From: Microcaecilia unicolor
Lineage: Eukaryota
Direction of reading: 5' to 3'
Assembly: GCF_901765095.1 (NCBI RefSeq)
Contig: NC_044037.1
Span: forward strand, 104,487,279-104,551,264
Length of the DNA: 63,986 nt
Below the pieces are notes generated by a model. The model was not told the origin of the DNA and searched no databases. It saw only the letters and a list, made by a program, of their open reading frames with translations. Shown piece after piece: positions 6,714 to 63,149 of the stretch (the first letter of the stretch is position 1; each line of letters begins with the position of its first letter). A program made the translations under genes and the position numbers.

Positions 6714-7049
6714 CAGTGGCGTACCAAGGGGGAGGGCGGTGGGGGTGGTCCGCCCCGGGTGCACAACGCGCCTGGGGGATGCCACGCCGGTCAGCGTTGT
6801 TGGTTTCCATGCTCCCTCTGCCCCAGAACAGGTTACTTCCTGTTCCGGGGCAGAGGGAGCATGGAAACCAACGACGCTGACTGGCGCGCGGCACCCCCCC
6901 CCCCCAGCGGCGTGCACCCGGGGGGGGTTCTTTCGCCGGTGTCCCTTCGCCGGGGGGGGGGGGGGGGGATCGCGCTGCACCCAGGGGGGGCGGGGGCGGG
7001 GCGCATCGGCGATCCGCCCCGGGTGTCAGCGCCCCTCGGAACGCCACTG
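6714..7049. mobile_element. hAT-like foldback MITE (CAGTGGCG.. family, subfamily with a central long hairpin), inserted in the L1 EN domain.
   Basis: Termini cagtggcgtacc.../...gaacgccactg. Perfect 8-bp TSD TAACAAAC at 6706-6713 and 7050-7057. Central ~45-bp stem hairpin at ~6790-6883. Confidence 0.75.
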
Positions 7050-11253: not shown

Positions 11254-11408
11254 GATATCCCTAGCTCTCAGGCTCACTCAAAACAAGAACCCAGGTCAAT
11301 GGAACCTCGCAACGGCGAGGAAACAACAGAAATTGACCTACGAAGAACAACTAACTGAGAGTGCAGCCTGACCAGAATAAATTCGGGTCCTGGAGGGTGG
11401 AGTTGGAT

Positions 11409-16982: not shown

Positions 16983-17782
16983 AATTACAGAATACTTGAG
17001 AATTTCTCTATTTAGGCAAAGAAGCCATACTGTGGGAATGTGGTCACATGTTTCCCAGTCCAGATGGCCAATCTGAACTCGAAACAGGCTCCACCTCCCC
17101 CTTCACATACCAAATTAATTAGAACTGTGTCTTATCTTCTATATTCCATACAAACAGAATTATTTCTAATCAAAATACAGACCTCGAGTGCACTTGTCGT
17201 TCATGGCAGAGTTGAAAAACAGACCTCAAGTGCACTTGTCGTTCAAGGCAGAGTTGAAAAACAATCTTTAAAATTCATTTCTAATACACTCCCTCCCACA
17301 TACCTTTAAAAGAGCAGATCTTTGCCAGCAGCAAGCAGTGTGATTGATTCACGTTGTGGGGCTGGCATAAGCAGTGTGTATCAGTCATGCTGCTCACTGC
17401 CAGCAAACATCTGCTCTTTAAAAAGTACATGGTGGGGGGGAAGGGTGTTGAAGGACTGGATTGCCGGCAGAGTGGATGGGTGGGGGGCGGGGGGGTGGTG
17501 AAGGACTGGATTGCCTGCGGGCAGAAGAGGGAGAGACCAGCTCACCTGTGGGGTGGGATTCTTCTGCCTACCCAACTTGGGCACAGGCCCACCCAAAATT
17601 GTTTGTCTGGCTATGCCCTTAGTCAGTGCTAGCAGTCAATGCAGGCCTTCCTCAACCTGCCATCTCCAACTGTCTTGCTGTCAAATTTGTGAGTTCTTTG
17701 TACCAAATGGAGCACTGCTGAGTGCGAGGAAACGCACCCTGACTCTGCTTGGCAGCCGAGCAACCCCGAGGTTCACCTGCGG

Positions 17783-18405
17783 CAGGGGCGTTTCTGCGTG
17801 GGGCCACAGGGGCCTGGGCCCCCGCAGATTTCGCCCTGGCCCCCCTCCTGCCGCCAACCCTCCCCCACTAATGTTGTTTACCTTTGCTGGCGGGGGACCC
17901 CAACCCCCGCCAGCCGCCGAGGTCTTCAAAGTTCTTGTTCGTCGTCCTCCGTGGCCATGCTGTACCCTGTTGATTTGGAGTCTGTCTGACGTCGCACCAC
18001 GTTGTACGTGCGTACAACGTGGTGCGACGTCAGACAGACTCCGAATCAGCAGCGTACAACATGGCCACGGAGGAGGACGACGAACAAGAACTTTGAAGAC
18101 CTCGGCGGCTGGCGGGGGTTGTGGTCCCCGCCAGCTGAAGAATTACTTTTAAAAGCAGGCGGAAACGGACCTCAGCTGGCGGGGGTTGGGGTCCCCGCCA
18201 GCAAAGGTAAACAACGTCAGCGGGGGAGGGTTGGCGGCGGGAGAGGAGGTGGAGAGAGTCGTTGGTGGCAGGGGGGGCTCTGGTAATGGCGGGGGGGGGA
18301 GTCGTTGGTGGCAGGGGGGGCTCTGGCAATGGCGGGGGGGGACTAAATGTGCCCCCTCCCTCTGGCCCTGGCCCCCCCTACTGCCAGAGTCCAGATACGC
18401 CCCTG
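17783..18405. mobile_element. hAT-like foldback MITE (CAGGGGCG../..CGCCCCTG family) containing a long internal palindrome (17940-18080).
   Basis: Termini caggggcgtttctgcgtggggccacagg.../...cagatacgcccctg. Perfect 8-bp TSD ACCTGCGG at 17775-17782 and 18406-18413. The whole element is near-palindromic. Confidence 0.8.
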
Positions 18406-19257
18406 ACCTGCGGTGACCGCCATTCCCCAGGGGTTGAGCCCCCAGGTGTGGGCGTGTAATGGAAGATTTAAAGGATTGCTTTTCAACCCTGCTTTGATCA
18501 ATAATGAACTCTGAAATCTTCTGTCTTTGACCGAAAGTAACTTTTCTTGTAAATACAAAAACAAGTTGGAATGCAGAAGATATGACATAGCTCTAATTAA
18601 TTTGTTATGTGAAGGGAACGATGGAGCTTGTTTTCGGGTTCAGACTGGCCATCTGGACTAGGAAACATGTGACCACGTTCCCACAGTATGGCTTGTTTAC
18701 CTAGACAGAGAAGCATTCTGTAATTTTCCTTAGCTCTGAACATGAGTTCTGAGCCTAATAAAAAGGGGAGTTTCTTTCAGTGAAATTGGGAGCTCATCCG
18801 TGAGTAACGTACGTACTGCACAGAGGATCTGCTCCTGGTCTAAAATGCTCCTGGCTTTCGCTGTAACGGGCCCCCCCAGCTGATGATAAGAGCCTGGATG
18901 ATGTAAGGACCAGTGATGTTGTATGTATGTATTATTGCTTCTTTTCCTGGTCTAAGAGCTCTTAGCATTGCTTAGATGTAGAGACCAATGATGTAATGAT
19001 TGTTTAGCTAATCATTGTGTTTATATAGCTAATCATTGTATATACCTTAATCATTGTAGAATTTAGCACCTCTAATAAAGGTTTCATTTATCTAATACGA
19101 ATCCAAAAGAATCCACAGTAATTATTGAGTAGTCTGTGTCAGTGAGACAGGCTGTAAATCCAAAGCAGTACAGGGTGGCAGACAGGACTTATGTAGAGAG
19201 AAAATGAGAGGGGCGCTGAGGAAACCAGCTGGAGGAGAGTACAAGGGAGTGGCCCAG

Positions 19258-19599: not shown

Positions 19600-20812
19600 C
19601 ATGGAGCAGGAAGGCGGGTTGGCGGTCACAAGCCAACTGGCAGAGCCAACTTGGAAGTTCCTCAGGAAGCGCGCTGATCCGACCGCAGGCAGGGCAACAT
19701 GGGGGACCCGGGTGCGCGCACAGAGCTGGAAAGTACTACGGAAGGGCACAGCACCGTCCCGAAGTGCCAGACCCGTAGAGACAGTGAGCGTCCCCACGCC
19801 ACCGGAGAGCCCCTCCGACGAGGAGGTAAGGGGCGTGACACTTGCCCAGTTCCTCAGTGCCTTTCTCATCCATGCCTAACACTAATTACCTTCCCCATTA
19901 TCATCCAGGCACTCCAGAACAACATGGCTCAGTTGTTCACCATAGTCTGCTTTCCCTCGGTTATAGGCCTCATCAACTGCACACACATCACACTCAGACC
20001 CCCATCCACGGACACCTACAGCAGTGGCATAGCAAGGTGGGGTGCCAGGGGAACGGCCGCTCCCCCAAACAGAGTTCTGCCGGCGCTTATTTTTTTTGTC
20101 CTGTTGCACTGAAAATGTGCGCCAGCGGAAGTCCGCTCTCGCTCCCCCATGCCGTCACTGGCTCCGCTTCTGACCTACAGGAATAGAAAATCATATCACT
20201 CCATGAACATGCAGATTGTGTGTGATGCCCAGGCCCCAGGGAGATTGTGGATATATGTGCCCACTACCCAGGCTTCACCCACAATGCCTACATCCTCCAG
20301 CATTCAGGAATCTACTGCACATTTGAACAAGGGGAGATCACTGGCACCTGGCTCCTAGGTAAGCAGTACAGGGATTCCTAAACCCCATACCTCCTCCCCC
20401 CCTCTTAACCTTCAAACACACTCCTTCTCTCTAGATGCCCTCAGAACTGACAACCATTACCCCACCTCCACAAGGTCACCATACCAGCCAATACACACCC
20501 ATGTCTGTGATTCTGCTTCCCCCACCCCACAGGTGACAGAGGCTACCCCCAGCATACCTGGATCAATAATCCCATAATCCACCTCCATAATGAGGCAGGA
20601 GGAGAGTATAACGAGGCATAAGAGCACCCGCACCACCATAGAATGGACCTTTGGCCATATCAAGAATTGCTTCAGATGACTGGACCATTCCGGAGGGGAG
20701 CTCTTCTAGAGCCCTAAAAAGGTTGCCAAACGTTTGATGTCCTGCTGCTTGCTGCACAACCTGGCTCTCCAAAGAAGACAGGCCCTGCCAGAGGAGGGAC
20801 AGCAACCACAGC
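19600..20812 (+). pseudogene. Harbinger/PIF-type DDE transposase (HARBI1-like) pseudogene. It has frameshifts, two in-frame stops and two intron-like interruptions. Its 3' end continues after the hAT insertion at 23388-23480.
   Basis: Transposase motifs in order: ITFP..IQALQNNMAQLFTIVCFPSVIGLINCTHITLRPP; YRNRKSYHSMNMQIVCD; YPGFTHNAYILQHSGIY..GEITGTWLLG; then after GT..AG (20359-20532) DRGYPSIPGS; then YNEAHKSTRTTIEWTFGHIKNCFR*LDHSGGELF*SPKKVAKRLMSCCLLHNLAL. Confidence 0.65.
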
Positions 20813-21267
20813 CAGGGCCGGTCTTAGCAAGTGCGGGACCCTATGCAGACCAATTTTATGAGGCCCCACCCTAGTCCTGCCCCCACCCTAGCTCCGCCCC
20901 CACCCTAGCTCCAGGGCTGGCCACCCCTCCCTCTGAGCTCCAAGGCCCCCAGCTCCAGGGCTTGTCGATCCTGCACAGTCAATGCCAACTGAAAGCCATG
21001 TCTTTTTCACAAACACAGATACACCCTAATCCACTATAGAATAAGTAGTAATATTTAAACTTTCTATTTAGACAAAAATTAAACTGAACCCCCAAGATGC
21101 CAGACTCTGCATACAATGCAACACCACAGAAACAGAAAATGTCCCCTAGTACTGTGCAAAATATAAAGACAGCAGATGTAAATTTGAAAAAAAACTAACA
21201 AATACCAATCACCACTTTACAAATTAACAAATAGAAATAAAACAAATATAGAAAATAAAATAATACA

Positions 21268-21425
21268 ATTTTATTGGACTAATACATTTAGCTTTCAGAG
21301 GCCAAAACATCCTTCCTCAGGTCACTACAGTATAGTACTGTTACAGTATCCTATCCTGACCTGAGGAAGGGGGTTTGTTCTCCGAAAGTTAGCCAAAATG
21401 TATTAAAATTAGTCCAATAAAATGA
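21268..21425. repeat. Small palindromic (foldback) element inside hAT element A.
   Basis: Inverted arms cattttattggactaatacatttagctttcagaggccaaaacatccttcctcaggtca / tgacctgaggaaggg..attagtccaataaaatg. Confidence 0.4.
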
Positions 21426-21491
21426 TTACCTTGTTTACATGTTCTATTATAAACATTTATTAACACAGCTACAATACTACTTTATCCTAAA

Positions 21492-21841
21492 CAGTGGCGT
21501 AGCCACAGGTGGGCTTGGGTGGGCCAGGGCCCACCCATTTATGGCTCGGGCCCACCCAACAGTAGCACATGTTTAGTGGTAACTAGTGGGAATCCCAAGC
21601 TCTGCCAGCTGAAGATTTCCCCCTGATGGTAACGAACATGCTACTCTCCACAACACCGGCACCTGTGCATGCTCAGTTTTCAGTGCATGCTTGCTGCCAA
21701 GGTGAAAAGAAGCGTTTTCCCACTGGCTGAGATAATTTTTTTTGGAGGGGGGGAGAACACTTGGTGCCCACCCAATTCTTGCCCAGGCCCACCCAAAATC
21801 TGTTGTCTGGCTACGCCCCTGATCCTAAAGCAAAAAAATAA
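21492..21841. mobile_element. hAT-like foldback MITE (CAGTGGCGTAGCC family) nested in element A.
   Basis: Termini cagtggcgtagccacagg.../...tggctacgcccctg. Perfect 8-bp TSD ATCCTAAA (21484-21491 and 21842-21849). Confidence 0.8.
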
Positions 21842-21849
21842 AAATATAT

Positions 21850-22980
21850 ATTTTATTTACAGTTTGTTGTCTCTGGTTTCTGCTTTCCTCATCTTCTTTT
21901 CACTGTCTTCCTTCCATCCAGCATCTGTCTTCGGTCTCTCTTTGCCATCCAATTTCTGCCCTCTCTCCCTGCCCCTTACATCCACCATCTGCCCCTGTCT
22001 GCCCTCTCTCTCTCCCCCTTCCATTCACTGTCTACCCTTTCTATCCCTTCCATCCACTGTCTGTCCTTTCTCTCTGCCCCTTCAATCCACCATTTGCCCT
22101 CCCTCTCCCATCCATCCAGGGTCTGCCCTCCCTCTCGCTCCCCCTTCCATCCAGGATCTGCCCCTCCCTCTCTGCCCCTTTTTTTCAGCCCCCAGTTCCA
22201 GCCCCACTATCCCACCAGTCCCCCGTTTCAGCCCCAGCCCTTTTCTCCCACCAGTCTCGAGCTTCAGCCCCCAGCCACTTCTCCCTGTCCCCTTTTCAGC
22301 ACCCAGTTTCAACCCCAGCCCTTTTCTCTCATCAGTCCCAAGCTTCAGCCCCAGCCACTTCTGTCTCCTTTTCAGCCCCCAGTCCCCACACTTTCAGCCC
22401 CTGCCCCTTTTCAGCCTCCAGTCCCAGTACTAGCCCCCTTATCCCACCTACCCTCCTTTTCAGCCCCCAGTTCCAGCCCCCTTCATCCACATGCCTTGTA
22501 TTAGGGCCCCCCTTTTCAGCCCCAGAACCATTCTCCCACCTGACCCATGCATGCCCCATTTTCCCACCAGCCCCAGGCATGGCCCCCATTCTCCCATATG
22601 GCCCCTTCTCAGACCCCAGTTCCAGCCCCCTTCTCCCATCTGGGAGCCCCCTCCCCTCCTCCCATTCAAGAACCTCCTCGCCTCCCCACCCCAGTCCCTT
22701 CTGCCATCCGAGAACCCTCTCCCCACCCCACCCCCCTTCTCCCATCCCCCTTCCCACCCTAGTCCTCTTCTCCCATCCGAGAACCACCTCCCCACCCCAG
22801 TCCCCTTCTCCCATCCAAGAACCCCAGTCCCCTCCCCACCCCACCCATCCCCTGCTCCCATCCAAGAACCCCCTCCCCTCCCCCAGTCCCCTTCAACCAT
22901 CCGAGAACCCCCATCCCACACCCTTCTCCCATCTGAGTCCCCCCCCCCGACCTGACCCACCTACCAGCTCCGTTCTCCTG
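21850..22980. repeat. CT-rich low-complexity / degenerate tandem block (ccc-ttc-cat-cca motifs). The ORFs here are compositional artefacts.
   Basis: Strong pyrimidine bias on the plus strand. Similar composition at 61760-62800, which also follows a MITE end. Confidence 0.6.
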
Positions 22981-24102
22981 CCACCACCCTCACTGCCTTT
23001 TAAAAAAAAATTTGCGAAGTGCCGGAGTGGCAGGCAGCGCCTCGAGTCTGCCCTGCTAGTAAAAATCTCCTCGACGTTGTCAGGCCTTCCCACATTGAGT
23101 CCCGCCCGCCCTCGCGGTAATAGGAAGTTACCTCAGAGGAGGGCTGGACTCAATGTGGGAAGGCCCGACAACGTCGAGGAGATTTTTACTAGCAGGGCAG
23201 ATGCGAGGCACTGCCTGCCACTCCAGCGCTTGACAAATTTTTTAAAAAAGGCAGGACAGGGTGGGAGCAGCGGAGGGAGGGGGGACTGGAGCTCGGGTGG
23301 TCGGGGCGGGGCGACTTCAGGCGCGCCGCGCAGGACCCCCTTGAGCGCGAGGCCCTATGCGGTCGCCTCGCCCTAAGACCGGCCCTGACCACAGCAGCAG
23401 CCACTCGACCCAGAGGATAAGGAGCATACCAGTTGGGAGTCAGCGACAGACAAAGACTCATTCTGACCAATTTTCAGTAAAGGTAAGTGCACTATTTATT
23501 TGTGCACAGCACCTCTGTAACATCCCCCACCCCCTCTCCCCCAGCACAAACCCCCCTCCTGCTGCACATACAACCCCACCCCTGCAAATACAGACTCACC
23601 CCCTCTCCCCAGCACACACCACCACAGCATGGCAATTAGGTGACTCACAGTTCTCCCCCTCCCCAACCCCTCTGGGAACCACTTCTCCCACCCTGTCCCC
23701 GACCTGCTGGCAATGGCCCAGGCCTTGCAGGAGCAGAAATTGTGTCAGAGTTCTCCTCTCTGGGGCTTCCACTGTCCTCACAGTCATCAGTCCGTCCTGC
23801 CGCCTCTGTTGTAACCTGGAAATCTAGTCACCTGATTGGCCAGGTGGTTGATGTGCTGCTGGGCCCAGCAAACAGGAAGGGAGCTTGCACCAGCTCTGCA
23901 CCTATATGAGAAGTCAATACAAATGTGGTATAGATTAGAGAATGACATGGGGACAGGGAACCGCAGCAGGGTATTCAACAGGGGTTGGGTCTAGACCATT
24001 AATGAAGTTTTCTGTGTCCATGTTGTTCTGAGGTAGGGTTTTGCGTAGGTTTATGATTTTTTCATTGAAATATTTAGCAAGGCTGTCTGCAGATGCGATG
24101 TC

Positions 24103-25910
24103 CAGGGCCGGTCATAGCAAGTGCGGGGCCCTATGCAGACCAATTTGGTGGGGCCCCATCCTAGCCCCGCCCACCCTAGCCCTGCCCCCACCCTAGCTCC
24201 GCCCTCACCCTAGCTCCACCCCACTGATAAGATTCCATTTTTAGAAAAATTTTTTATTTATAAAGACTAATGAAGCTGAATCCCCATTCTGCTGAGCCCA
24301 AGCAGCTTCTCTCTCAGTGTATAGCCCAAGCTTCATTATTATTATTAATATATTCTTATAACCAGTGCGTTTTTTATAGCAAAAAGGTGCCAGTACTCAA
24401 ATGCTAGCCACCCTTCAGGGGTGGGGTGATCATTGAGGGACCCACCCCATAATATAATCCAGGCCCCCTGAATTGGTGTGTAGAGCCTGAGCTCTTTCAT
24501 TAAAACCCAGGGACCATGGGTCAATTTTAGCAGACAATAGAAAAGGTGCCAGCACTCAGTACCCCCAAGTACCCCCTCAAAAAAAAAGCCCTACTTATAA
24601 CCCACAAAATACCACAAAGTTCACTGTGGCTAATATACCAAAACTGAAAAAACCCCATCAGGAATTACAATGTCTATACACAAATTTTCAAAACAAACAA
24701 ACCTCAGCTACCATGAATTAACAAAATTTCTAAAAAAAATAAATTGTGACAAAGACAAATGAAGCTAAACTTGAACAAAAAAACTGAATGAAATAATAAG
24801 CACAATGCTATCATGAAACCTCCCCTCCCCAGAAATTATTCAGTTCAAGTCCACTACAATTAGTAGTTCCAATTCTCATAACAAAGGAGAATAACGGAAA
24901 AATATTAAGAAAAGATCCAGTACTTTCAAATTCCCCTATTATTCTGTAACCCATCAAACCAGAGAGGCAAGTAGCCACATCAGTTACTAAAATAGTTTGA
25001 ACTGATTGTACCTACTTTATATCAGATTTTGCTACTTCATGATTTCCATTCTCAGATTTTAGCTTAGTAATCTTTTCTTCCTGTGATTGCAGTCTAGCTT
25101 CCAAATGATTAATTCGAGGTGTCATATCATTAATTACTGGAAGCAGTGTTTTAGCTAAATCTGCTATTGCCATCCAAATTTTTATCAGGAGAAATATCTG
25201 CAGATCTATGTGAAAATAACCCAGATATGTTACAAACAGCCTCTTCCAAGCCAGAAGATCTTACTTGCTCATCTTCTCCAGCAACTAATGTTGTTGGGCC
25301 AAATTCCTCTCAGGAAGGCAGACATTTCCAACCCTTGCACCGTCCGCAAGCGTCGTTAGATGAGAGAGACACTTCTCCTGATCTCCTGCCTGCATGGAAT
25401 CCGATTTCGATTTCCGATTTGGCATAAGTGCACAACTGTTGGCATCAGCAACGATGGCTCACCTCACGTCCTCACCACCTCCGACCAGGCTCCAGCTTTT
25501 CCCGCTCAGTGACTCCTGCCCTCGCGTCTGGAAACAGGAAATACATCAGAAGGCGGGACATTGAGCGGGAAGCTGGAGCCTGGAGGTGAGCCGTCGCGCT
25601 GCAACTGTCTGTCGTCGCCGTCGGAGGCGGGGCCATCACTGCCTGGGCTGGCTCGCTGGCATCGCTCAGTTAGTCGCCGGGGACTCGGGAGCTGACGGCG
25701 GGCTCAGCGGGCCCAAGCCGGGGGGGGGGGGGGGGGGCGCCGCGCCGGTGGTGGCGGGAGCGGAGCGGCTGAGCCGCGAGAATGGGGATCATCTCAGGTG
25801 ACTAAGGCGAGCAGCGGCGGAGGTCAGAGCGGAGGCGCGCCGCGCGGAGCCCCCTTATGCGCGGGGCCCTATGCGGCCGCCTTGGTCGCCTCTGCCTAAG
25901 ACCGGCCCTG
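24103..25910. mobile_element. hAT-like non-autonomous element 'B' (1.8 kb), same TIR family as element A.
   Basis: TIRs cagggccggtcatagcaagtgcggggccctatgc.../...gccctatgcggccgccttggtcgcctctgcctaagaccggccctg. 8-bp TSD GCGATGTC/GTGATGTC (one mismatch) at 24095-24102 and 25911-25918. G17 homopolymer at ~25722-25740. Confidence 0.65.
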
Positions 25911-27005
25911 GTGATGTCAGTGTTGGTTGTGGTGACCGGTGTTGTGTCTAGTAGTTTGTTGACGAGATGGTATAGTTTCTTCGTGTTTTTGTAGTCCGGC
26001 CCAATTTTAGTTTTGTATACGACCTTTTGGTTTGTTTTATTGCGTATTTGTATTTCCTTTGTAGTTGTTTCTATGTGTTGAGTGTTTGTTCGTCTTTTAT
26101 TTTTTTCCATGCGAGTTCCAGTTTCCTTAATTGTATTTTTAGTTTTTTCAGTTCTTCATTGAACCACGGTGTCGAGTTGTGTCTACGTGAAGTTCTTATT
26201 TGTAAGGGTGCTATTTCGTCTAGTATGTGTCTGTATGTCTAAGAAGACAACTTCTATTCCAGGAAGGACTGTGGAAGACAGGAGAACTAGATTGAATCCT
26301 GAGATTGTTGATGACTTCTTATTTATCCACAGATTAAAAAACCATAACAGTGCTTTATAGGGCATATTTTTCCCCTCTAGGGCATATAGAGCGGGTTGTA
26401 TTTTATACCCCTGGACATTTTAACAGTGTGAATTAAGATTCCTTGGTGTAGTAGAAATCACCTATTGTTGGGGTTGGAAGGGTAGAGGGTGGTGGTGGGA
26501 AGGAGGGTTATTATAGCTGCTCATTGTTATTATTGTTCAATATTTGTAATTTATACACGACAGTTGCACAGTATATTGTTCCTTTTTATACTTTAATAAA
26601 AAGATTTAAATATAAAATCATGTGTTCAAGGCTTCTGCAGATGAGGACAGAGCCCACGGGGGTGGGGACGGGTACAGAACCTGCGGGGACGAGGCGAGGA
26701 CGGAGACAAACTTTGTCCCCATGTCATTCTCTAGTATAGATAGAATTTATCTTTTGTGAAAGTCCTGTTGCACTATATAATCACAACATTTGGACAACTA
26801 CAATTTTAAAAAATGTGTACTGGACCTTCAGATTTCAGGTAAAGCTAAAGATGATTTCTCACTCAGGTGTTGTACCATCAGTGGCATACCAAGCACGGGG
26901 CAGTGGGAGCAGTCCCTCCTGGGTGCAAGCAATAATACATTGCCCATAAAGAATTTGCTTTTTTAATATCACCACGTGCCAGCAATTCTAAACAATGCGT
27001 TCGTT

Positions 27006-27436
27006 TTACTAAGTTGCAGTAAGCACTAGCACGTGCTTACTGCAGGTTAAAAAGGGATCCGCTCAGGTGTCCCGCGGTAGTTTTGGAATTGGCATGCGCT
27101 TCCCACATGCTAAAAAATAGATTTTATTTTTTAGCAAGGGGGTGTGTTTGGAGACAGAGACTAGACGTACCCTGCACTAATCATTCGGTGTAGGGTTATT
27201 GGCGAATGTTGACTGATTAGCGCAGGAGCCCCTACTGCCTACAAAATAAGTGGCAGTAAGGGCTCTCACGTTAATTGGGAAATTAATGAAAAAAATAAAA
27301 AGAGAGAAAAATTGCAGCCATTTTACAACCAGGCTAAAAGTGGCCTCGGTGTGCGAGAAACCAATGAGCTAAAAATAGCACAGGTCACTTTTTAGCACAG
27401 CCTAGTAAAAGGGCCCCAAAGTCAGTGATAAAATAC
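27006..27436. repeat. MITE-like element of the GGGG(G)TCCTTTTACTAAG terminal family (5' terminus truncated).
   Basis: Starts ..cgttttactaagttgcag and ends ..ctagtaaaagggcccc. Related copies at 31273-31694, 39240-39400 (partial), 52253-52330 and 54743-54849. Confidence 0.45.
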
Positions 27437-28500
27437 TCCTTGTTGAAAAAATGTTTTGTTGGTGTATGGGGGGGGGGGGGGGGGGGGGAGGGGAGGGAAT
27501 GATAAAAAATGATCCAGTTCAGGTGTCAAATATACTAGGTATACCACTGTGTACCACCACTTCCACAGTGGTCCATTTAGGGTTAAAATTATCAATGTAG
27601 GCTACCGTTAAGATATTAGTAACAAGGTCTCTTTGCATAAAATGGGACCTGTGCTAAAATAGCATGTGTTAAACAGTATTCAAGTAGAAAAATACTTATC
27701 TTTTCCTTGAAAATCCATTAATTATTTTGAAAACAAATCAGGAGGCTACCATTTGACATAACACTATGTTTCACATTGTTGCTTCAGGGAGACAGCTCCT
27801 GCAAAAGAAATTTATCATTAACTTCTGGTCTCATAAATAACAATATCTTCTGCAACTGATGGCACACTGCACTGCTTTTTCAATTATTAAAAAAAATCAT
27901 TGGATTTTTAAGAAAAAGATAAGCATTTTTCTAACTGAATACTGTTTAAGCTGGAATAAGGATTGCATCTGAATAATTAAATGGACCTGTGAGGGAAGTG
28001 ATAGTACAGTTTCTGAGTGACAAATCCTCTTTAGTTTTACCTGACATCTGAAGGTCCGGTACAAGTTTATTATTTGTTTTTGAATTGACTGTGATTGTCT
28101 AAATTTTGTGATTTTAAACATATATTTTTGAACTGTATTTTTATTGATTTATCATTGAAGCCCTGGGATCCATTGCAAGTTTTCTGACTACAGCATGGCA
28201 TGACTACATATTGTCCCTTTTTCCAAGTACATGAGGAGTTGATGCTTAGTTTGTTTTAGTATCTAGGTAGCATGCGGTGCTGCCTGATTACTGCCGAGTT
28301 AATACTGCACTGGAAAATAGCTAGCTATTTTCCCTAGTGTGGCAAATGGCATGTTCTGGGGCTGGAACTACTGCTGGCACCCTCATTGGGCCAGCGGTAG
28401 CTCCAGATTGGCATTCGGTAAGCCTGCATTGGACTTGCCGCTACTCTGTAAAAGGGCTCCTTTGTTCGAATTCAGAGAAGAGATATAAATGGGGTCACAT

Positions 28501-28883
28501 CAGTGGAGTAGCTACGGGGGGGCCACAGGGGCCTGGGCCCCCCAAATTGGCTCTGGAGCCCCTGGTTGGTTAGGGACCCCTGCCAGCTAAAGCGTTTGTC
28601 CAGCACTAGTTTCCGCTGCATTGCCTGCCCTGCTCCTCCCCTCATGCCTGCCCTACGCTTCCCCTCACATCACATGCATGCTCGTGTTAGTGAAATGTGA
28701 GGGGAAGAGCAGGACAGGCAATGCGGTGGAGACCAGTACTGGACAAATGCTTCAGCTGGCGGGGGTCCTGAACCCCCGCTAGCCAAGGTATGTGAAGAGG
28801 CAGTGGCAATGGAGGGGCGGGGCAGCAGGGAGGCGGGCTAAAATGCCCCCCCCCCCCCACGTTGAGGTCTGGCTATGCCACTG
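28501..28883. mobile_element. hAT-like foldback MITE (variant terminus CAGTGGAGTAGCTACG).
   Basis: Termini cagtggagtagctacggggggccacagg.../...ggctatgccactg. 8-bp TSD GGTCACAT/AGTCACAT at 28493-28500 and 28884-28891. Internal palindrome cccctcacatcacatgcatg..tgtgaggggaag. Confidence 0.6.
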
Positions 28884-35600: not shown

Positions 35601-36289
35601 TTTTTTCCTTCTGTGGATTACAACAAAGATCATTTTAGTAACCAGCACATAAGTACAAGCACCCTTTTTAACCCCTCCCTCTTCCTTGCCAAGCAGAGGC
35701 GTAGCCACGGGCGGGCCTGGATGAGCCCAGGCCCAGCCACTTTCCCTCCAGACCCACCCATCCAACATCCTTCGCTTGCTGTCACTGCTTTTTCTCCCGT
35801 GGCTCCGGGTATGGCCGTCCAGGAGGCAGTGTTCAGCGTTGCCTGCCTACCTGCCCTGAAATAATTCTTCTCCCCAGGCTCCGCTGCCTCGGTCCCTACA
35901 TTTTCTTTTTCGCCCGTCGCGCAGCGCTGACATTCACACAGGCAGCTCCGCTCTCCCCTATCGCGTCCATCTGGCCCTACGTAAACAGGAAGTGCATCAG
36001 AGAGGGCTGGATGGATGTGGCAAAGGGGAGCGGAGCTACCTGTGTGAATGGCAGCGCTGTGCAACGGGCAAAAAAGAGAATACAGGGACAGAGGCAGCAG
36101 AGCCTGGGGAGAAGAAGAATTTCAGGGCAGGTAGGCAGGCAATGATGAATGCTGCCTTCCGGACGGACATACCCGGAGCCACTGGAGAAAAGGCAGCGAC
36201 AGCGAGCGAAGGATGTTGGATGGGCGGGCCTGGAGGGCAGAACTAAAGTAAGTGCTGGACCCTTGGGGGGGGAGGACGGGGGGGGGGGC

Positions 36290-36960
36290 TGGAGGGAAGG
36301 GATAGATTTGTCGGACTTGTGGGAGGAAGGGGATTGGAGGGAAGGGAGAGACTTACTGAATGTGGGAGGAAGAGAAAGGAGGGGATCTGAATGGAAGGGA
36401 GAGATTTGCTGGAGGTGGGAGGAAAAGGAGGAGGGGATGGATGGAAGGGAGAGAGCTGTTGGACACATTGGAGCCAACTCTGTGGGTGCTGTGGGTGCTT
36501 GAGAGCCCCAATATTGAGAAAATTCCTTGTATGTGTCCAGGGAGGGGTTATTTTCATTGGGCTTAGCACCCCCAATAATTTTGAAAAGTTGGCTCCTATG
36601 GCTGGACATGGGAGGGAGAGGAGGAAGGGGCTGGAGAGCTGCTGGTCAAGGGAGGAAGAAGGGACTGGAGGGAAGGGAGAGAGCTACTGGACATGGGAGA
36701 AAGAGGAGGAAGGGACTGGAGGGAAGGGAGAGAGCTGCTGGACATGGGAGGAAGAGGAGGAGGGGATCTGGGTGGAAGGGAGAGAGCTGCTGGACATGGG
36801 AGGAAGAGAAGGAGGGGACTGGGTGGAAGGGAGAGAGCTGCTGGATGTGGGAGGAGGTGGCTGGAGAGAATGAGCTGCTGGATGTGGGAGTAAGAGGAGG
36901 AGGGGATCTGGATGGAAGGGAGAGAGCTGCTGGACGTGGGAGGAAGAGGGGGAACAGAAC
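36290..36960. repeat. Minisatellite, ~51-bp unit x ~10 (gggactggagggaagggagagagctgctggacatgggaggaagaggagga), within a 1.3-kb purine-rich block (36150-37460).
   Basis: Directly visible tandem units. The overlapping ORFs (36391..36873, 36527..37075, minus-strand ORFs) are repeat artefacts. Confidence 0.7.
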
Positions 36961-37999
36961 TGGCGGGAAGGGAGAACTGCTGGTACAGCACAAGGAGGGA
37001 GGGAAGGAAGGGAAACAGAGATACCAGACCAAGGACATGAAGGAAAAGGGAACAAATACTAAACCTACAGTGTGAGGGAGGGAGGAAGGGAGGGTGGGGT
37101 GGGTGGCTGGGCAGGCAGAGAATCAAACAACCAAACCAGATGCTGGAAAGGGGAGGGAGTGAGAGGGAGAGAAGCTGGACGGGGTAGGGTCAGAGAGGGT
37201 AGAGATATAATGGCACTGGGGACAAAGCGGGTGGAGAAGCTGGACAGAGAAATATAGGGACGCAGAGAAAGGGAGATACTAAACATGGAGGAAGATAGAG
37301 GTACAGAGATGAAAGAAGATGGATAGTGAACATGGAGAGAGAGTAGAAATATCAAATGGACATGAAACCTTGGTGAGTGAGTTAAGAGAAGACAGAAGGA
37401 TGTAGAAACCAGAGCCTGGGACCAACATGACTTGGAAAAAATAAAATGAGCAGACAACAAAAGGTAGAAAAAAGAATTTTATTTTTCTATTTTGTGACTA
37501 GAATATGTCAGATTTTAAATGTACATCCTGCCAGAGCTGGTATTAGAATATGGCTGGGGCCCACGGCAGATATTTAGGAGGGGACGCCAAAGCTTACTAA
37601 CAGGCTGCACCTTCTTCAGCTTCCAGCTGGCCTGGGGGTTCTCTCTGGCCAGGGGGCCAAACGCAGTTGCCCTAGTTGTACCTCCCCTAACACTGTCTCT
37701 TGCATGTGCTATCATATTTTGCACAGTATAGGAGAAAATGCATCTCTTTGTATTTCTCTGTGCTGTGCTAAATGCAAGGTCTGGCCTCTTGGGATTTTGA
37801 TTTAATTTGTTTATGGTTTGTGGTCACTTATTCTGTATTTGGCATTTGTGTTCTGTGTGTGTGACCGAAGTATTCTGTTTGCATCAATTTTCTATGTAGT
37901 ATTCTATAGTACTTTGGCTTGTTCAGTTTTCTTGATGTATTGATATTTTAGGGCCCCACTGTAATATTTAGGGCATATTTGGGGGAAGCATATGTGTGT

Positions 38000-38239
38000 T
38001 GGCGGACCGTGGCTTAGTGGAGGATGAAGAGTGCTCCCTCTTATATTTCCCCTAGCTCTCAATGTGGCCTGCAGCCACTGAGGCCAGCACTGCTACTCCC
38101 ATTGAAGTTATTGGGAGTGGGGTAGGTGTGCAGTAGGAGTAGGGGCATGGGCAGGGCATATCAGGTGCAGGTGTTTCTCTAGTGCCCGTCCATCCAACCT
38201 GTTGGCGCACCCAAAAATTGCCTTCTGTCTATGCCACTG
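38000..38239. repeat. 3' fragment of a CAGTGGCGTAGCC-family hAT MITE (inverted relative to the copy at 60625).
   Basis: 38190-38239 ..acctgttggcgcacccaaaaattgccttctgtctatgccactg is the reverse complement of 60625-60670. The interior matches 60700-60830. Confidence 0.5.
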
Positions 38240-47059: not shown

Positions 47060-49090
47060 TATTGAATATTTTTAATAGTAAATTTTGGTGTCAAGATGGC
47101 GTCCTGAACACGTTTGCTGCCCGATCGGAGCTGCCCGCTGGTTTTTCCTTTAGCAATTTTCCTATCCTAATGCCTCACACTAAAAGGAAGGGGACGGTAA
47201 AAGGCCAACTGCCGTTGGCCAGAACATCTTCCCCGATCCAGCAGACGATTGATCGCTATGTGACGAGTCTTCCACTAACCGGAACGGTTGATCCCGAGTT
47301 GAGAGCCATAGAAGGAGCATCGGCTCTCTTGGGGCCAGAGACATCATTATCACCACCGGATCTTAATCCTCCTCCATGTCCTGCGTTCTTTGGGTGAAGT
47401 ACAGAGGGCCAAACCAAATCGGAAGTCACTGGTGTTGGGGCCTTGTTCAGCAGCGTACCAGCCCAGACCACAGGAGAAGTGATCGGTGAACTTTTAGCTC
47501 CCAAGGAGATTTCACAGGAGTCTATTTGGAGAGCTATTCAGGCTTTAACAACATTTGTTTCAAAATCTGCCCAGGAAACTACTCTTCTCGTGAGTAAAGT
47601 TGAAACTTTGACTACCTCATTACCGCAAACTACTGAAGACCCATCTCTTTAACAAGGCATACCACAAAGATCAACAAATGTGAACTCCTATACATATATC
47701 CTGAACTGTCTTGTAATATTTGCTTGTTAAACTACTATCATGTTTTATCATTGTCATGTTACCCAAGATCCTTCTGTAATACCAAATGTATATTTTCTTG
47801 TGTACTACCACCATTCATGATGTATTATAAGCCACATTGAGCCTGCAAAGAAGTGGGAAAATGTGGGATACAAATGCAATAAATAAATAAATAAAAAGTT
47901 AACTAAGAGACAGTTAATTTTCTGACTACTTAACTTTTCCTATTTATTTAATCTCTCTATGTTACAATTTGCAAGTGAATCTTGTATAACTTGTAAAGTA
48001 TAAATAAAATTGTTGATAAAAAAAAAAAAAGAAAAAGTTAACTAATGCAACAAGAAGTTAAAGATTTAAAATCTTCTACTGAAATGTTAATCAAAGATAA
48101 AACTTTGACTTCTAGGAAGACTGAGCAAATAGAGAACTATAACAGACGATTGAATTTAAGGATTTTAAAATTTCCTATGACTACAGGAATTACCTCAACT
48201 GATTTCTTTAAAAAGTATTTGCTGGAAGTTTTACAATATCCTGCTACAGCTATTCCCCCGTTAAATAAAACTTATTATTTACTTTTACCCAGTGGCGTTC
48301 CTAAGGGGGCTGACACCCGGGGCGGATCGCCGATGCGCCCCGTCCCCCGGGTGCAGCGCCCCCCCGGATGCAGCGCGACCTCCCCCGGTGAAAGGACACC
48401 CCCCACGAAAGAACCCCCCCTGGGTGCACGCCGCTGGGGGGGTGCTGTGCGCGCCTGCCCTCCGTTCGTTCCATGCTTCTTCTCTGCCCTTGAACAGGAA
48501 GTAAACTTTAATTGTTTCATTCGTATGTGAGCAAGATATAAATGCTGTATTAAAATTATACTTTAAGAATTCCCTAAAAATCTTTTATGGACAGAGAATT
48601 TGGGTATTTCCAGATGTCACAAAGACTACACAAGATAGACGGAAACAATTTCTAGCTCTCAGAGAAGAGACAAAGGCGATGGGCGCAACATTCTTATTAG
48701 CCTATCCATGTAAATGCCTAATACGATATTTGGGGAATAAATATGTCTTCTTTATACCTGAACAACTTAATACATTTTTGGATATGAAAAAGCTTTCCAA
48801 TAAACCAAAGGAATGAGAGAAAAACTGCTGATTAAGTATAGATTAAGTGGGAACTACGGACAGGCCATATAATTATAACTTTTTTCCTCTTTTATTTTTG
48901 ATCTCCTCGTCTGTAGAACAAGCCCCCCCCCCCCCCCCAAATTGTGGACTAAGGAAGCGATTGAATGTGGGTTAACGAATTTTCAACTAAATTTTCTAGT
49001 GTATTTTTTTGTTATGGACACATTCTTTCTCTATATTTCTTTTTGCAAGTTAATGCTTGTAAAATGTTAAAATGAAATAAAGAAAATTAA
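47060..49090 (+). mobile_element. Second ORF1-only half-L1-like element. It is degraded (frameshifts) and interrupted by a truncated hAT MITE (48290-48506).
   Basis: ORFs 47053..47397, 47443..47652 and 48045..48530 (..EQIENYNRRLNLRILKFP..PPLNKTYY) and the frame at 48590-48830 (FPDVTKTTQDRRKQFLALREETKAMGATFLLAYPCKCL) are collinear with the ORF at 863..1792. There is an A-rich 3' end. Confidence 0.6.
48290..48506. repeat. Truncated copy (5' half) of the hairpin-containing hAT MITE subfamily.
   Basis: cagtggcgttcctaagggggctgacacccggggcggatcgcc... up to the first hairpin arm (ctctgcccttgaacaggaagtaaac). Homologous to 6714-7049 and 56610-56956. Confidence 0.55.
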
Positions 49091-49587: not shown

Positions 49588-50113
49588 CAGGGGCGTATCT
49601 GCGTGGGGCCACAGGGACCTGAGCCCCCACAGATTTCGCCCTGGACCCCCCTACCGCCGTTAACCCTCCCCCGCCTACCGTCGTCAACCCTTTCCCCGAG
49701 GTCCGTTTCCTCCTGCCGGTTTTTAAAAATATTACTTCAGCTGGCGGGGGACCCCAACCCCCGCCAGCCCAGCCGAGATCTTGTTTGAGTTCTTCATCCT
49801 CGTGCTGTGAAAGCTGCATCCCTTCCAGATGGACGGAGTCTGACGTTGCAGCACGTCAGACTCCGTCCAACTGGAAGGGATGCAGCTTTCACAGCACGAG
49901 GATGAAGAACTCAAACAAGATCTCGGCTGGGCTGGCGGGGGTTGGGGTCCCCCGCCAGCTGAAGTAATATTTTTTTAAAAACCGGCAGGAGGAAGCTGAC
50001 CTTGGGGATAGGTGACGGCAGTAGGCGGGGCAGCGGCCGGGGGGGGGGGCTATAATGTGCCCCCTCACTCTAGCCCCTGCCCCCCCTACCGCCGAACCTC
50101 AGATACGCCCCTG
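49588..50113. mobile_element. hAT-like foldback MITE, full length. The entire element is one long palindrome.
   Basis: Termini caggggcgtatctgcgtggggccacagg.../...cagatacgcccctg. Perfect 8-bp TSD ATTTGTAC at 49580-49587 and 50114-50121. Central palindrome 49780-49930. Confidence 0.85.
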
Positions 50114-52319
50114 ATTTGTACTTGAATTTAAATCACTGTTCAGCAGAATACAAATAATGTATTCGGGGCCAAATCGAATACGAATATTTGATACAGCCTA
50201 GTGCATAGGTCCTTAAGTATCTTACCAGACCAAGGTAGACATGGTGGTTTTCAGGGCTATGGAATTGATACACCAAACTTTTCACTCTGACTCCTCTATT
50301 TTTCTACTGTCCAACTCTGATCGATATTAGACTTTACATTTTTTTGTCCTGGATCTAAAGTATTGGAACATAACTTATATTTTCCAGTACTTTAGATCCA
50401 AAACAAATATATATAAGTATAAAATGATAAATTTACCATATATTATAAGTTTGTATTTTAAAGCTGGAGTTAGTACATTTTTACCGATGCCAATGCCACC
50501 CAAAATTGCTTTAGACTGACTCAGATGCTGTGACTCCAACTCTGACTCCACAGTCCTGGTTTTCAACTCTGTCCCGAAGGCATTCCTTACAAGTCTGTTT
50601 TTTAGGAAGGTCACATTGAATATTCATAAAATAAATGTGTATACACTCTGTCTCCAATATATGTAAATCTATTTCACACATATTAAAGATACCCTGACAA
50701 TCAGGGCAGGAGCAGGACCATGGGTAGGTAACAAATCAGGCACCATGAACACAAATATGATGAAGTTTTCAGGAATATGAACAAGATGGATCTACTTAAA
50801 CTGAAACGGGGGGGGGGGGGGGGGGGGGAATAAATCTCTCATATACATATTCAAGATCTTTGCCTCTGAGGAGTGAGAAGCTAAGGAGCTAAATCTTTGT
50901 GTGCCACATTCTGGTATGTACTGCTAAGGCTGACAACCTCTAATCTAAGGCATAACCTATGGCTTAATGATTTGGATGAAATCTGAGTCTGCAGTAATTT
51001 TATGGCTTTTGTGGAAAATCCTGTTTTTTAACCTGTGAATAAATAAGAAGTCATCAACAATCTCAGGATTCAATCTAGCTCTCCTGTCTTCCACAGTCCT
51101 TCCTGGAATAGAAGTTGTCTTCTTAGAAGATGTGCTGATAGCAGGATGTATAGGATCCCCCTTGCAAATTTTGCTAGTTGTGGCCAGTATGTTTGATTGC
51201 TTGTCCTAAAAATCTAAATATCTTTGTAGGCATCACTTAAACATAAATAACAGTCCAGTTCATTAACAGGCTTCAAAGTAGAAAATCAAACGGGGGCAAA
51301 GTTTGTCTCCATCCCTGTCCCGTCCCCGCCCCATCCCCACGAGCTCTGTCCCTGTTCTCATCCCCGTGTCATTCTCTAGTATGGGGAGACTGTTGCTGTA
51401 GGTGTTTAGAGCTATATCCCTGTCCTATATTATATTTCTGCTGTTTGCATATTATATTCCTTTTTTCCTTTTGTTCACATATGTATATTTTGTTGACCAT
51501 AGAGCTTGCTTTTTAGGTTTCTACAGCAGAGACATGGTACTATGATATTTCATTTACAACCGGCTGGAACTCCTTTCTTACTTCTTCCCTTTTTGTATCC
51601 TCCCCTTCCCTTCACCAGCTTACTTTTTAAGTCCAGTTATCACTGCAATAGTCCTTAGCCAGGCTCATGCATCAGAGCTTATTCAAGTGTCCTGCAATCA
51701 GAGCCCTATATCCAGCATCACATTGCACAAGAACAATTCCCTCCCCCTACAGGAGCTGTAAAAACTTCTGCGGTATCAGGCATACCCAAGCATTGAACTT
51801 GGATCCTCTGCATACTAGTGCCTGAGCCATTAGGTAGCCCAGGAGAATAGACCGAATATGGTACATGCACTAGTGGAAGTCTAGATTCTCATTTTACTAC
51901 ATATGCACTAATTTCCTTCTGTGCCATCACTATTGATTAGAATGATATGAAATTGCTCTCTACTGTCATTGCAGGAGTTTTATGGCTGTGGTCAGTCAGC
52001 ACTATTACTGTAACATTTATTATTATTTTTTTTTTTAAATAAAGGCCTGCATGCAAGTGACTAAACCTTTCCATTTCCCACCATTTTATACCTGGTCCTG
52101 TACCACCTTAAACCATTGCCCAGAATACTGGAAATCTATGCACTGCTTTTCAGTTCTCATTACCTTTGCAAAACAGTGGAGCTTTGTCCCATCTGCAACT
52201 ATGAATGGGAGTTACCAGTAAATGAATAGTGAACTCATTTAGGGGGCTATTTTGCTAAAGATTAGCTCGAGTTATCTGCTGCAGGGCCCATTTTATTCCT
52301 ATGGGCCCTGCTGTAGATA

Positions 52320-56464: not shown

Positions 56465-57045
56465 GAGGAGCGGCCTAGTGGTTAGAGCACCTGTCTTGAC
56501 ATCCAGAGGTGGCTGGTTGAAATCCCCACAACTGCTCCTTGTGATCTTGGGCAAGTCACTTAATCATTCATTGCCTCAGGTACAAAATTACATTGTGAGC
56601 CCTCCAGGGCAGTGCTGTAGCGAGGGCTAATGGCACCCGGGGCGGGTCGCCGCTGTGCACCCCCCCCCCCCCCGGGTGCAGCACAGCACGACCCCCCCCC
56701 CCTCTGCGGCGCAGCCCCCCGGAGCACAAACACCCCCCGGACCGCATTCTTACCTGCGGGAGGGCCGATCCGCCCCGAGTGCACGTCACTCGGAGCTGCG
56801 TCGGCCCCGCCGGTTCCCTGCTCTCTCTGCCCTGGAACAGGAAGTAACCTGTTCCGGGGCAGAGAGAGCAGGGAACCAGCGGGGCCGGCACCCCCCAAGC
56901 GCGTGCACCCAGGGCAGACCGCCCCTCCTGCCCCCCCCCCCCTTCCTACACCACTGCTCCAGGGACAAGTACCCAACTATAACTCACCTTGAGCTACTAC
57001 CGAAAAAGGTGTGAACAAAATCCAAATAAATAATGTTTAGGGGAT
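56465..57045 (+). mobile_element. tRNA-derived MIR-like (CORE) SINE, split by a hAT MITE insertion (56610-56956).
   Basis: tRNA-like head with A box (ggcctagtggttagagcac) and B box (ggttgaaatcc). MIR CORE-like ..cttgggcaagtcacttaa..cattgcctcag..ttacattgtgagccctccaggg. It continues after the MITE as gacaagtac... Confidence 0.55.
56610..56956. mobile_element. hAT-like foldback MITE (hairpin-containing subfamily) inserted in the MIR-like SINE.
   Basis: Termini cagtgctgtagcgagggctaatggcacccggggcgg.../...ctacaccactg. Perfect 8-bp TSD CTCCAGGG (56602-56609 and 56957-56964). Central hairpin ~56815-56880. Confidence 0.7.
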
Positions 57046-60624: not shown

Positions 60625-60830
60625 CAGTGGCGTAGCCAGAAGGCAATTTTTGGGTGGGCCAACAGGTCAGATGGGTGGGCACCAGGGTTGCTAACTTTTT
60701 GAAATTGAAAAACTTGCCTCCCGATGCCCCACCTCTACCCCACTCCCAATAACTTAAATGAGGGTAGCAGTGCAGGCTTCAGTGACTGCAGGCCACATTG
60801 AGGGCTAGGGGGAAATACAAGAGATTGTAC
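60625..60830. repeat. Partial CAGTGGCGTAGCC-family hAT MITE (5' half), within the putative Myb-like intron 2 region.
   Basis: cagtggcgtagccagaaggcaatttttgggtgggccaacagg... Reverse-complement match to 38000-38239. Confidence 0.5.
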
Positions 60831-61759
60831 TCTTCAGCCTCGGTCCCCTAACACACATACTTAGCCTGTATAGCAAGACCAAATACTTTTCAACACGTCT
60901 CTAGGTACACGCTATAGAAACAATCCCAGAAAGTATAGTGTAGTATTAAAGGCAAATAAATTCTGCATCCACAGAACCCCCTGACACCCCCCCCCCCTGA
61001 CACCCCCCCACCCCCACCCGTCCCAATGGGTGCAGAGTAGAATTAGGACATTTCCCAATAAAACTCACCATAATCTCAACAGCTGCCATATAGTAAATAA
61101 AACAATCTTTAAAATAAAATGTCACTCATAACCTAGAGCAAATCTACGATGCCAGCACTAACTTCCAAAACAAGGATCCTACCTATGAAAAAGGCATTGC
61201 CCTACATATTACAGTGGGGTCCTAAAATAGCAATAAGTCTATTGGGAAAACTGAACAAACCAAAATTACTACAGAAGGCTACATAGAAAATTCATACTAA
61301 CAGAATACCTCAATCACACACATGGACCAAAAATGCCAAAATATAGAATAATCGACTACAAATTATAAACATAAATTTAATCAAAACCCCAAGAAGCCAG
61401 ACCTTGCATGTAATACAATACCAAAGAAACAGAAAGACATGCATTTCCTCCTGTGCAAAATGTAAAGATAGTATGTGCCAGGGATGGTGTTAGAAGAATG
61501 CAACTGGAGCAATTGCTGTCGGTCCCCTGGCCAGAGAGAGCCACAAGCATGATGGAAGCTGAAGGCAGTGTAGTCTCGTGATGGGCTTTGGGGTTCCCTC
61601 CCAAATTTATGGCCTGGGCTCCAGCCATGTCTAACACCAGCTCTGGCAAGATGTACATTCCAAATCTGACATATTCTAATCACAAAATAGAAAATAAAAT
61701 TATTTTTCTACCTTTTGTTGTCTGGCTATTTTATTTTTCAAATCAGCTTGGTCCTAGTC

Positions 61760-62800
61760 TCTGGTTTCTGCTTTCCTCAGTCTTAATTCACTCACCAGGT
61801 CTCCTTTTTTGTCATGCCTTCTCTCTCCATGTCCACGATCCATTTCCCATCTCTGTGTCCCCAAAGTTCCTTGTCCAGTATCTCCACTGTGTTCAAAATC
61901 CTGCAACCATCACCCTTTTATCCCCTACCCCTGTGCCCAACATCACCCCTTGTGTCCCTATGCCCTCCCATATCCAGTACCTCCCTTCTGAGTTCCTATT
62001 CTCCCCTATATCTAGTATCTCTCCCCTGTGTCCATATACCCCTCCCTCCCAGTGTCCAGCATAGCCTCTCTATTCCCAAATCCCCCCCCCCCCCCTCTGT
62101 CAGGCATTGCCCCTCTGTGTTTATATGCCATCCCCATATAGCATCTCAGATCTGTTTCTGTATCTCCCCTTTCTCCCTCACCCACACCAATGTCTCTCTT
62201 TCCTCTGCGATCCCACCTATCCAGCTTCTCTCCTTCCTTCCAGCTTTTGGCTCTTTCTCCTACTGTGAGTTAAAAATTTGTCTCCCTCTTCCTTCATCCC
62301 CTTGACCAGTCATCTCTCTCCCTTCCCTCCTCATCTCTCCCCCTGCTACAGCACCTCTGTTTCTTCCCTGAGCCTCCCCTGCAAGCCTACCCTCTAGCCC
62401 CCCCCCCCCCCCCATAGGTCCAGCACCTCCCTTCCTTCTAGCCTGCCCCTCCTTGCAGGTCCAGCAACTTCCTTCCTTTCCTCCAGCCCCCAGCCTCTCC
62501 CCCTTAGGTCCAGCACCTCTCTTCCTTCACTCCAGAGTCCAGCCCCTCCCCCCCAATAAATCCAGCACCTCTCTCCCTTGCCTCAGCGAGCCACTTCCCC
62601 CCTTGCAGGTCCAGAACCTCTCTGCCTTCTTTCCAGCCAACCCCTCCCTTTTGTAGGTCTAGAACCTCTTTCCTTTCCTTTCCTTTCCTTTCCTTTCCCT
62701 TCCCTTCTCTTCGGCCTCCAGTCCCCCACCTCACACAGGTGCAGCCACTGTTTCCCAGCCTGCCCCTCTCCCACCCTGCAAGTACAGCCACTCACTCCCA
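61760..62800. repeat. CT-rich low-complexity block with degenerate short tandem units (ccttt x6 at ~62672-62700).
   Basis: Pyrimidine-rich plus strand. It follows a degenerate MITE terminus (gttgtctggctat at ~61722), paralleling 21830-22980. Confidence 0.55.
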
Positions 62801-63039
62801 GTCCGCCCTGCAGGTCAGCATTACTTCATCCTTTTCCCTCACTCTCACTGTGCTGCAGATGGCCACGAGCGGAGCAGAGCGGAGTGAGTGAGGTCGAGGC
62901 TGTGCACGCTGCCACGTCATACTGCACGTAGGATGGACCAAGCTGCGCGACGTGACCTGCATTTCAGTGGGCTGGACGGAGAAGTGGAGATCAGCTGAGC
63001 GGGTGCCGTCTGCGGTTGTACGCTACGCGATCGCGATCG

Positions 63040-63149
63040 CGTAGAAAACATTGAAAAAAGGCTGCGCTGCAGTGTGTGCGCTTGGGCGGGCCTGAGGTGA
63101 AATTGGACGGGCCTGGGCCCACCCAGGCCCACCCGTAGCTATGCCCCTG
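63040..63149. repeat. 3' terminal fragment of a CAGTGGCGTAGCC-family MITE.
   Basis: ..gggcctgggcccacccaggcccacccgtagctatgcccctg matches the 3' ends of the 21492 and 17783 elements. Confidence 0.4.

Follow-up and report, generated by a model that had tools for sequence, protein, structure and literature searches.

hAT terminal repeats conventionally start with 5'-YARNG, and many hAT-N families exist in vertebrates. Published hallmarks of hAT transposons are short inverted ends (10-25 bp) together with target-site duplications of 8 bp (PMC3942097). For Hermes, the target preference is 5'-nTnnnnAn-3', again with an 8-bp duplication (PMC10368747), and the target consensus of Buster elements is 5'-nnnTAnnn-3' (PMC3517528). 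Mar and the BuT2-MITEs of Drosophila willistoni are short, non-coding and mobilised in trans, as we propose for the elements described here. They have ends of 11-12 bp that start with CAG(G/A)GG, and their 8-bp duplications are mostly identical and differ between copies (PMC3517528, PMC3942097).

In the 63,986-nucleotide stretch of DNA analysed here (the window), we find ten complete elements with the terminus CAGKGGCRTAGCYAG (eight with a perfect duplication and two at 7/8) and one half copy. This bears out the first-pass annotation, which had counted at least eight copies with common termini. We suggest, with a probability of about 0.9, that these CAGKGG elements are non-autonomous class II hAT-type transposons that are mobilised in trans. 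The annotation had read them in the same way, and this reading is supported by the 8-bp duplications, the CAG ends, the target bias and the absence of coding capacity. The CAGKGG type would belong to hAT by its architecture only, that is, by duplication length, end motif and target bias.

The comparison with the described systems shows both likenesses and differences. The end of Mar, CAG(G/A)GGTAGGC, resembles CAGGGGCGTAGC here. However, Mar targets nnnTAnnn, whereas the elements here prefer nTnnnnAn and have TA at positions 4-5 in 1/10 duplications, so that the Buster-type pattern does not hold. Mar also has a traceable full-length parent, whereas none is seen in the window for the CAGKGG type, and its host is an insect, whereas the host here is a vertebrate-type genome. 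Like Hermes, hobo and Ac, the elements have an 8-bp duplication, the nTnnnnAn preference and short imperfect inverted ends, and the need of Hermes for subterminal sequence fits the 60-85 bp of subterminal sequence that is conserved among three of them, B, G and E (PMC10368747). Hermes, hobo and Ac encode a transposase of about 600 aa, whereas the elements here encode nothing, and the ends of Hermes are 17 bp long and unrelated to them in sequence. In every tested respect the elements are ordinary non-autonomous hAT elements, a kind that is thoroughly known.

With at most one mismatch, CAGKGGCGTA occurs 21 times in the window, compared with 4.7 +/- 2.2 times (maximum 11) in shuffles. Seventeen of these occurrences are ends of duplication-flanked elements; another is the real half copy at 48290, and the remaining three are consistent with chance. 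The consensus of the 21 termini is CAGTGGCGTAGCYAG. CAG is invariant, G5, G6, T9, A10 and C12 are near-invariant, and the CG at positions 7-8 has often decayed to CA or TG, the pattern expected of CpG. The true terminal inverted repeats measure only about 12-15 bp, and in the focal element B (17783-18405) they read CAGGGGCGT(T/A)TCTG. A literature search for the terminus strings returned primer coincidences only.

All features are listed in Table 1. The exact 8-bp duplication reported for the focal element is found on either side of it, at 17775-17782 and 18406-18413. The duplications reported for A, G and H are likewise 8/8 at the coordinates first given for them, and the single mismatch reported for E is there. 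For C, the duplication had been read correctly, but the right-hand end was misplaced by 20 bp (21841), since the terminus lies at 21812-21821. The first reading had missed J, D, F and I among the CAGKGG elements, and K, L and M, which have other end types. Element J, which comes from a relaxed search of 3213 pairs with 0.05 perfect duplications expected, is a probable member of the set. By size, eight of the CAGKGG elements (A, B, C, D, E, G, H and J; 151-671 bp) are MITE-sized. These eight are small and non-coding, and the type reaches ten copies and one half copy in 64 kb. The other two, F and I, at about 2.5 kb, are non-autonomous but not miniature.

Table 1. Positions, ends and target-site duplications of the transposon features in the window
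Feature	Position	Strand	Length	Ends	Duplication	Remarks
A	6714..7049	+	336 bp		TAACAAAC 8/8	GC 0.74
B (focal)	17783..18405	.	623 bp	5' CAGGGGCGTTTCTG; 3' reverse complement of CAGGGGCGTATCTG	ACCTGCGG 8/8	non-coding hAT-type MITE
C	21492..21821	.	330 bp		ATCCTAAA 8/8	nested within K
D	26879..27549	.	671 bp	CAGTGGCATACC / CAGTGGTATACC	TGTACCAT/TGTACCAC 7/8	singleton interior
E	28501..28883	.	383 bp		GGTCACAT/AGTCACAT 7/8	distant relative of B and G
F	35694..38239	+	2546 bp	CAGAGGCGTAGCCA / CAGTGGCATAGACA	TTGCCAAG 8/8	non-coding
G	49588..50113	.	526 bp	CAGGGGCGTATCTG at both ends	ATTTGTAC 8/8	B group
H	56610..56956	-	347 bp		CTCCAGGG 8/8	A group
I	60625..63149	-	2525 bp		CTAATAGC 8/8	non-coding
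J	20022..20172	.	151 bp	5' CAGTGGCATAGC; degenerate 3' CAGAAGCGGAGCCAG	ACCTACAG 8/8	singleton interior; probable member
Half copy	48290..48515	-		single terminus CAGTGGCGTT		A/H group
K	20813..23387	.	2575 bp	second end type CAGGGCCGGTCTTAG, 12/12 inverted	ACCACAGC 8/8
L	23936..26733	+	2798 bp	third end type TAGAGAATGACATGGGGA	GTATAGAT 8/8
M	24103..25910	.	1808 bp	K-type	GCGATGTC/GTGATGTC 7/8	in L
L-type hAT relic	50990..51378	-		terminus TAGAGAATGACAC at 51378

The CAGKGG elements had been described as a single family, and this description does not hold. Only the terminus of about 14 bp is common to all; there are at least four groups with unrelated interiors, and the interiors of any two copies are either unrelated or 69-89% alike. 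By interior, the groups are A, H and the half copy; B, G and E; C, F and I; D; and J. In the first group the interiors are 69-77% identical (69% between H and A, which lie in opposite orientations). In the focal group, 60-85 bp at each end are common to B, G and, more distantly, E, with B and G 84-89% identical, and all three have a 29-bp hairpin motif, GCTGGCGGGGGACCCCAACCCCCGCCAGC. Exact searches of metagenome and prokaryote genome collections matched neither the subterminal 24-mer of this group nor the hairpin motif. At about 9535-9570, directly left of a large inverted duplication, the motif recurs in degraded form. Elements C, F and I have about 60 bp in common at each end. F and I lie in opposite orientations and are related at 75-77%, with a module of about 700 bp in common at 77%. 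D also matches 50808-50829 over 22 bp, but this is only a homopolymer run and was discarded. Elements with unrelated interiors behind the same terminus most likely owe their mobility to one and the same transposase or to closely related ones, and this suggests repeated recruitment of unrelated interiors by one transposase lineage.

Near-perfect palindromes had been ascribed to the elements in general. This is true of B and G; in A, E, H and F the palindrome is degraded, and C, D, I and J lack it, with no arm similarity in D, I and J. The arms of B align over about 122 bp with 5 substitutions (4.1%), and this element also contains a 43-bp tandem duplication at 18256-18341. In G the arms are about 184 bp long (positions 79-446 of 526) and 4.4% diverged, and their inner 130 bp or so differ by one substitution and one gap column. 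Arm divergence is 13-15% in A, H and F, where in F the palindrome (83%) is at the 5' side and a minisatellite lies internally, and the palindrome of E is at 71%. As single-stranded DNA, the long palindromes of B and G are predicted to fold into very stable hairpins (-277 kcal/mol and z = -39 for B, z = -33 for G); for the non-palindromic C, z is -3.2.

Foldback-style palindromic MITEs and 'double Ds'-like inverted structures also fold into hairpins, as B and G do almost end to end. The FB elements of Drosophila have long terminal repeats made of tandem units and 9-bp duplications. The elements here are not Foldback elements of the Drosophila type, because their ends are short (about 14 bp), their palindromes are internal and not terminal, and their duplications are 8 bp long. 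In contrast to classic FB, half of the CAGKGG group is not palindromic. In B and G the internal palindromes, like their degraded counterparts in A, E, H and F, are most simply seen as structural by-products of aberrant repair, which probably arose via template switching or inverted duplication. The half copy breaks off exactly at the palindrome centre of the A/H group, and no second copy of its duplication was found. This break point suggests a hairpin-mediated deletion, in line with hairpin-prone instability. By eye, the half copy lies in a LINE ORF1-like frame that resumes soon after it; this host frame, a putative L1 ORF1, was not recognised by Pfam.

In other systems, small RNAs are known to come from MITE hairpins, and the predicted hairpins here are very stable, with stems of 125-184 bp and about 96% pairing. 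It could therefore be proposed that the palindromic members, B and G especially, give rise to hairpin RNAs and from these to siRNAs or miRNAs, and that the family persists or matters in this way. We consider this very unlikely. Rfam finds no known RNA family in the whole window. In A, H, E and F the palindrome has eroded to 71-87%, and no compensation is seen. The hairpin is not conserved across the group either, given that C, D, I and J lack a palindrome.

We therefore return to the reading of these elements as non-autonomous hAT-type transposons, for which the ends, the target sites and the neighbouring elements have to be considered. The termini start with CAGTG or CAGGG, and both fit YARNG. 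In the ten target sites, T2 is found in five and A7 in seven; the combined count of 12/20 gives p = 0.0018 against base composition. Ten sites are a small sample, and the bias towards nTnnnnAn is modest. Hallmarks of the hAT protein are found nearby in elements with other ends. Element K hosts C, carries a minisatellite and has short internal pieces in common with F and I. Element L hosts M and retains the last 40 or so codons of a hAT transposase at 26238-26342 (+). The decayed C-terminus of a transposase, its hAT dimerisation domain, is found in the L-type relic at about 50990-51195 (-), traced within 50960-51205, and this part is 97% identical to L over 105 bp. It matches Dimer_Tnp_hAT with E = 0.0021 in the raw frame and with E = 1.2e-8 (score 35.1 bits, cut-off 21.4) after one frameshift was repaired by hand. 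Thus, hAT elements certainly once lived in this genome. The transposase relic is linked only to elements with TAGAGAATGACA ends (TAGAG type), not to the CAGKGG elements; as judged from this protein evidence, the TAGAG end type is hAT.

The window had been said to hold no autonomous hAT transposase. It holds no intact gene, but it does hold the decayed dimerisation-domain relic of the other end type. A hAT transposase carries a BED finger, an RNase-H-like DDE core and, at its C-terminus, the hAT dimerisation domain. The Pfam scan covered 254 frames (stop-free segments of at least 70 aa, outside the interior of a DIRS-like element and low-complexity frames), and in these no transposase and none of these domains was found in elements of the CAGKGG type. 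Non-autonomous copies are expected to lack them, and their absence does not count against hAT membership. Elements F, I, K and L have the size of autonomous hAT elements (2.5-2.8 kb), and no intact transposase was found in them; they contain minisatellites and low-complexity frames instead. An exact look-up of ten ORFs of the window in a protein collection gave no match. The autonomous partner of the CAGKGG type is absent from the window and, because none of these elements encodes a transposase, they need to be mobilised by another element.

Following established hAT biology, and reading from sequence alone, we propose how this would occur. A hAT transposase from elsewhere in the genome would bind the terminus of about 14 bp, and the subterminal repeats are probably recognised by it too. 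It would then excise the element and reinsert it across a staggered 8-bp target, with nTnnnnAn preferred, and repair of the stagger would leave the 8-bp duplication. Outside the window, searches of DNA from Chrysemys (23 kb), Lepidochelys (22 kb) and Pogona (24 kb) turned up no copy of any of these elements.

The elements could instead be MITEs of another superfamily with duplications of about 8 bp (P, Merlin, some Mutator-like elements, Zisupton or Novosib), mobilised by the transposase of that superfamily. This proposal draws on the fact that the CAGKGG type is tied to hAT by indirect features, with no linked transposase in the window. In addition, one stop-free segment within 1-32 kb weakly matches DDE_Tnp_4, the Harbinger-type (PIF/Harbinger) transposase, with E = 0.0034, a value that is not significant after multiple testing. 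We regard such an origin as highly improbable. The ends are 12-15 bp long and start with CAG or TAG, as in the CAGTGGCGTAGC terminus. By comparison, P ends start with CATG and have 31-bp repeats, Merlin ends start with GG, Mutator ends are long and Harbinger duplications are 3 bp. The duplication is 8 bp long in 13/13 elements (ten perfect and three with one mismatch), the target sites show the nTnnnnAn bias, and hAT protein relics are present in neighbouring elements of the same architecture. We thus favor hAT.

The evidence for transposition itself comes from counts and from the sites of insertion. Pairing of the termini gave 58 plus/minus pairs that are 80-4000 bp apart. Seven of these are flanked by duplications at 8/8 and two by duplications at 7/8, where 0.0009 and 0.02 are expected. 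A blind scan for identical, non-palindromic 8-mers at most 8 kb apart, whose inner 12-mers are inverted-complementary at 10/12 positions or more, gave nine hits, whereas 100 block shuffles averaged 0.32 and reached at most 2. Six of the nine are A, B, C, G, H and I, two are K and L with their new end types, and one is chance-like. Across the searches, the chance expectation is about 0.001-0.3 such hits.

Some of the elements had been said to disrupt other transposable elements. This was confirmed for A, which lies in the endonuclease domain of a minus-strand LINE, and for C, which lies inside the duplication-flanked K; for the MIR-like SINE that had been named as another host, ARAGORN and Rfam gave nothing. 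When A and one copy of its duplication are excised, a frame of 140 aa is restored that matches the AP-endonuclease family Exo_endo_phos (E = 5.7e-6) over residues 20-134, across the junction at residue 60. For D, there is an empty-site paralogue at 27978-28072 (-), which aligns unbroken through the excised junction and has a single copy of the 8-mer. As judged from the restored frame, the nesting of C in K and of M in L, and the empty-site paralogue, A, C, D and M are proven insertions. Chance or local duplication in place of transposition, for which only the repeat-rich context and the artefacts among the scan hits (DIRS terminal repeats and hairpin centres) can be cited, is effectively refuted by the counts; the duplications are also all mutually different, the host frame of A is restored on excision and D has its empty site.

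The perfect duplications had been taken to imply recent mobilisation of the CAGKGG elements. The duplications do speak for it, but no pair of copies is closer than 89% over 85 bp, and recent mobilisation is loosely supported. The two halves of the duplications differ at 2/80 sites in the CAGKGG group (95% interval 0.3-8.7%) and at 3/104 sites in all 13 elements. The CpG observed/expected ratio is 0.64-0.75 in A, B, G, H and J (0.64-0.66 in B and G), 0.50 in D and 0.24-0.30 in C, E, F and I, compared with 0.45 in the window as a whole, where GC is 0.46. This suggests a younger set (A, B, G, H and J) and an older set (C, E, F and I), with D intermediate. Since the closest copies are 89% identical over 85 bp, there is no sign of a very recent burst from a single master in the window.

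The window is packed with transposons, including fragments of LINE reverse transcriptase. CR1-type LINE fragments lie at 52941-54590, 1-427, 7749-8895 and 57673-58916 (locus L004). At about 53 kb, the CR1 reverse transcriptase shares 65-71% identity with CR1 proteins of turtles, and this CR1 family also occurs in the ENA metagenome contig ERZ12636438 NODE_27844 (77% at the amino acid level, 74-82% at the nucleotide level). A DIRS-like element at 10911-16970 (-) appears to be very young, with terminal inverted repeats of 148 nt that are 99% complementary. It also has long open frames of 957, 757 and 740 aa with RVT_1, RT_RNaseH and Phage_int_SAM_4. The nearest proteins to its reverse transcriptase come from turtles and Pogona (42-47%), and its upstream ORF (14370-16592) matches LAP2alpha with 25.5 bits against a Pfam cut-off of 25. 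This element, a LINE 3' fragment (10101-10712) and MITE B are all enclosed by an interrupted inverted duplication (9586-10895 and 16982-17148 against 18567-19175) with arms of about 610 bp and 75-83% identity. This structure may represent either a large foldback element or a segmental duplication in inverted orientation. The minisatellites of K, F and I (21995-22923, 36328-37205 and 61947-62552) are purine/pyrimidine-skewed, with units of 28-103 bp, and a similar free-standing array lies at 44113-44655. Such arrays produce long spurious open frames that are rich in Pro/Ser or Gly/Glu.

One frame in F, of 75 aa at 37578-37802 (+), matches Pfam Prepro-orexin with 23.7 bits against the curated 22.6 (E = 5e-5). 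Among all PDB sequences it is most similar to Orexin-A (E = 0.043), and its best tblastn match in the HCRT locus of the sea turtle Lepidochelys is the orexin exon (E = 0.01). F and I could accordingly carry a decayed, captured fragment of prepro-orexin (hypocretin), which would be a case of hAT transduplication in a vertebrate; we think this unlikely. When corrected for the approximately 250 frames scanned, the Pfam match has p of about 0.01. The homologous frame of I has no orexin match, and the frame in F has no similarity to the Lepidochelys HCRT locus at the DNA level. The likeness is probably due to chance.

About 14 kb (22%) of the window is nested debris of the hAT type, and its importance is mainly for annotation. 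Recognising this debris keeps palindromes, GC-rich islands and spurious frames from passing as genes or regulatory RNAs. There are hints of activity in the lineage of B and G, whose arms are about 4% apart, whose CpG ratio is raised and whose duplications are perfect. If this lineage is still moving, transposon biologists would have a further, moderately interesting example of recent activity of a DNA transposon.
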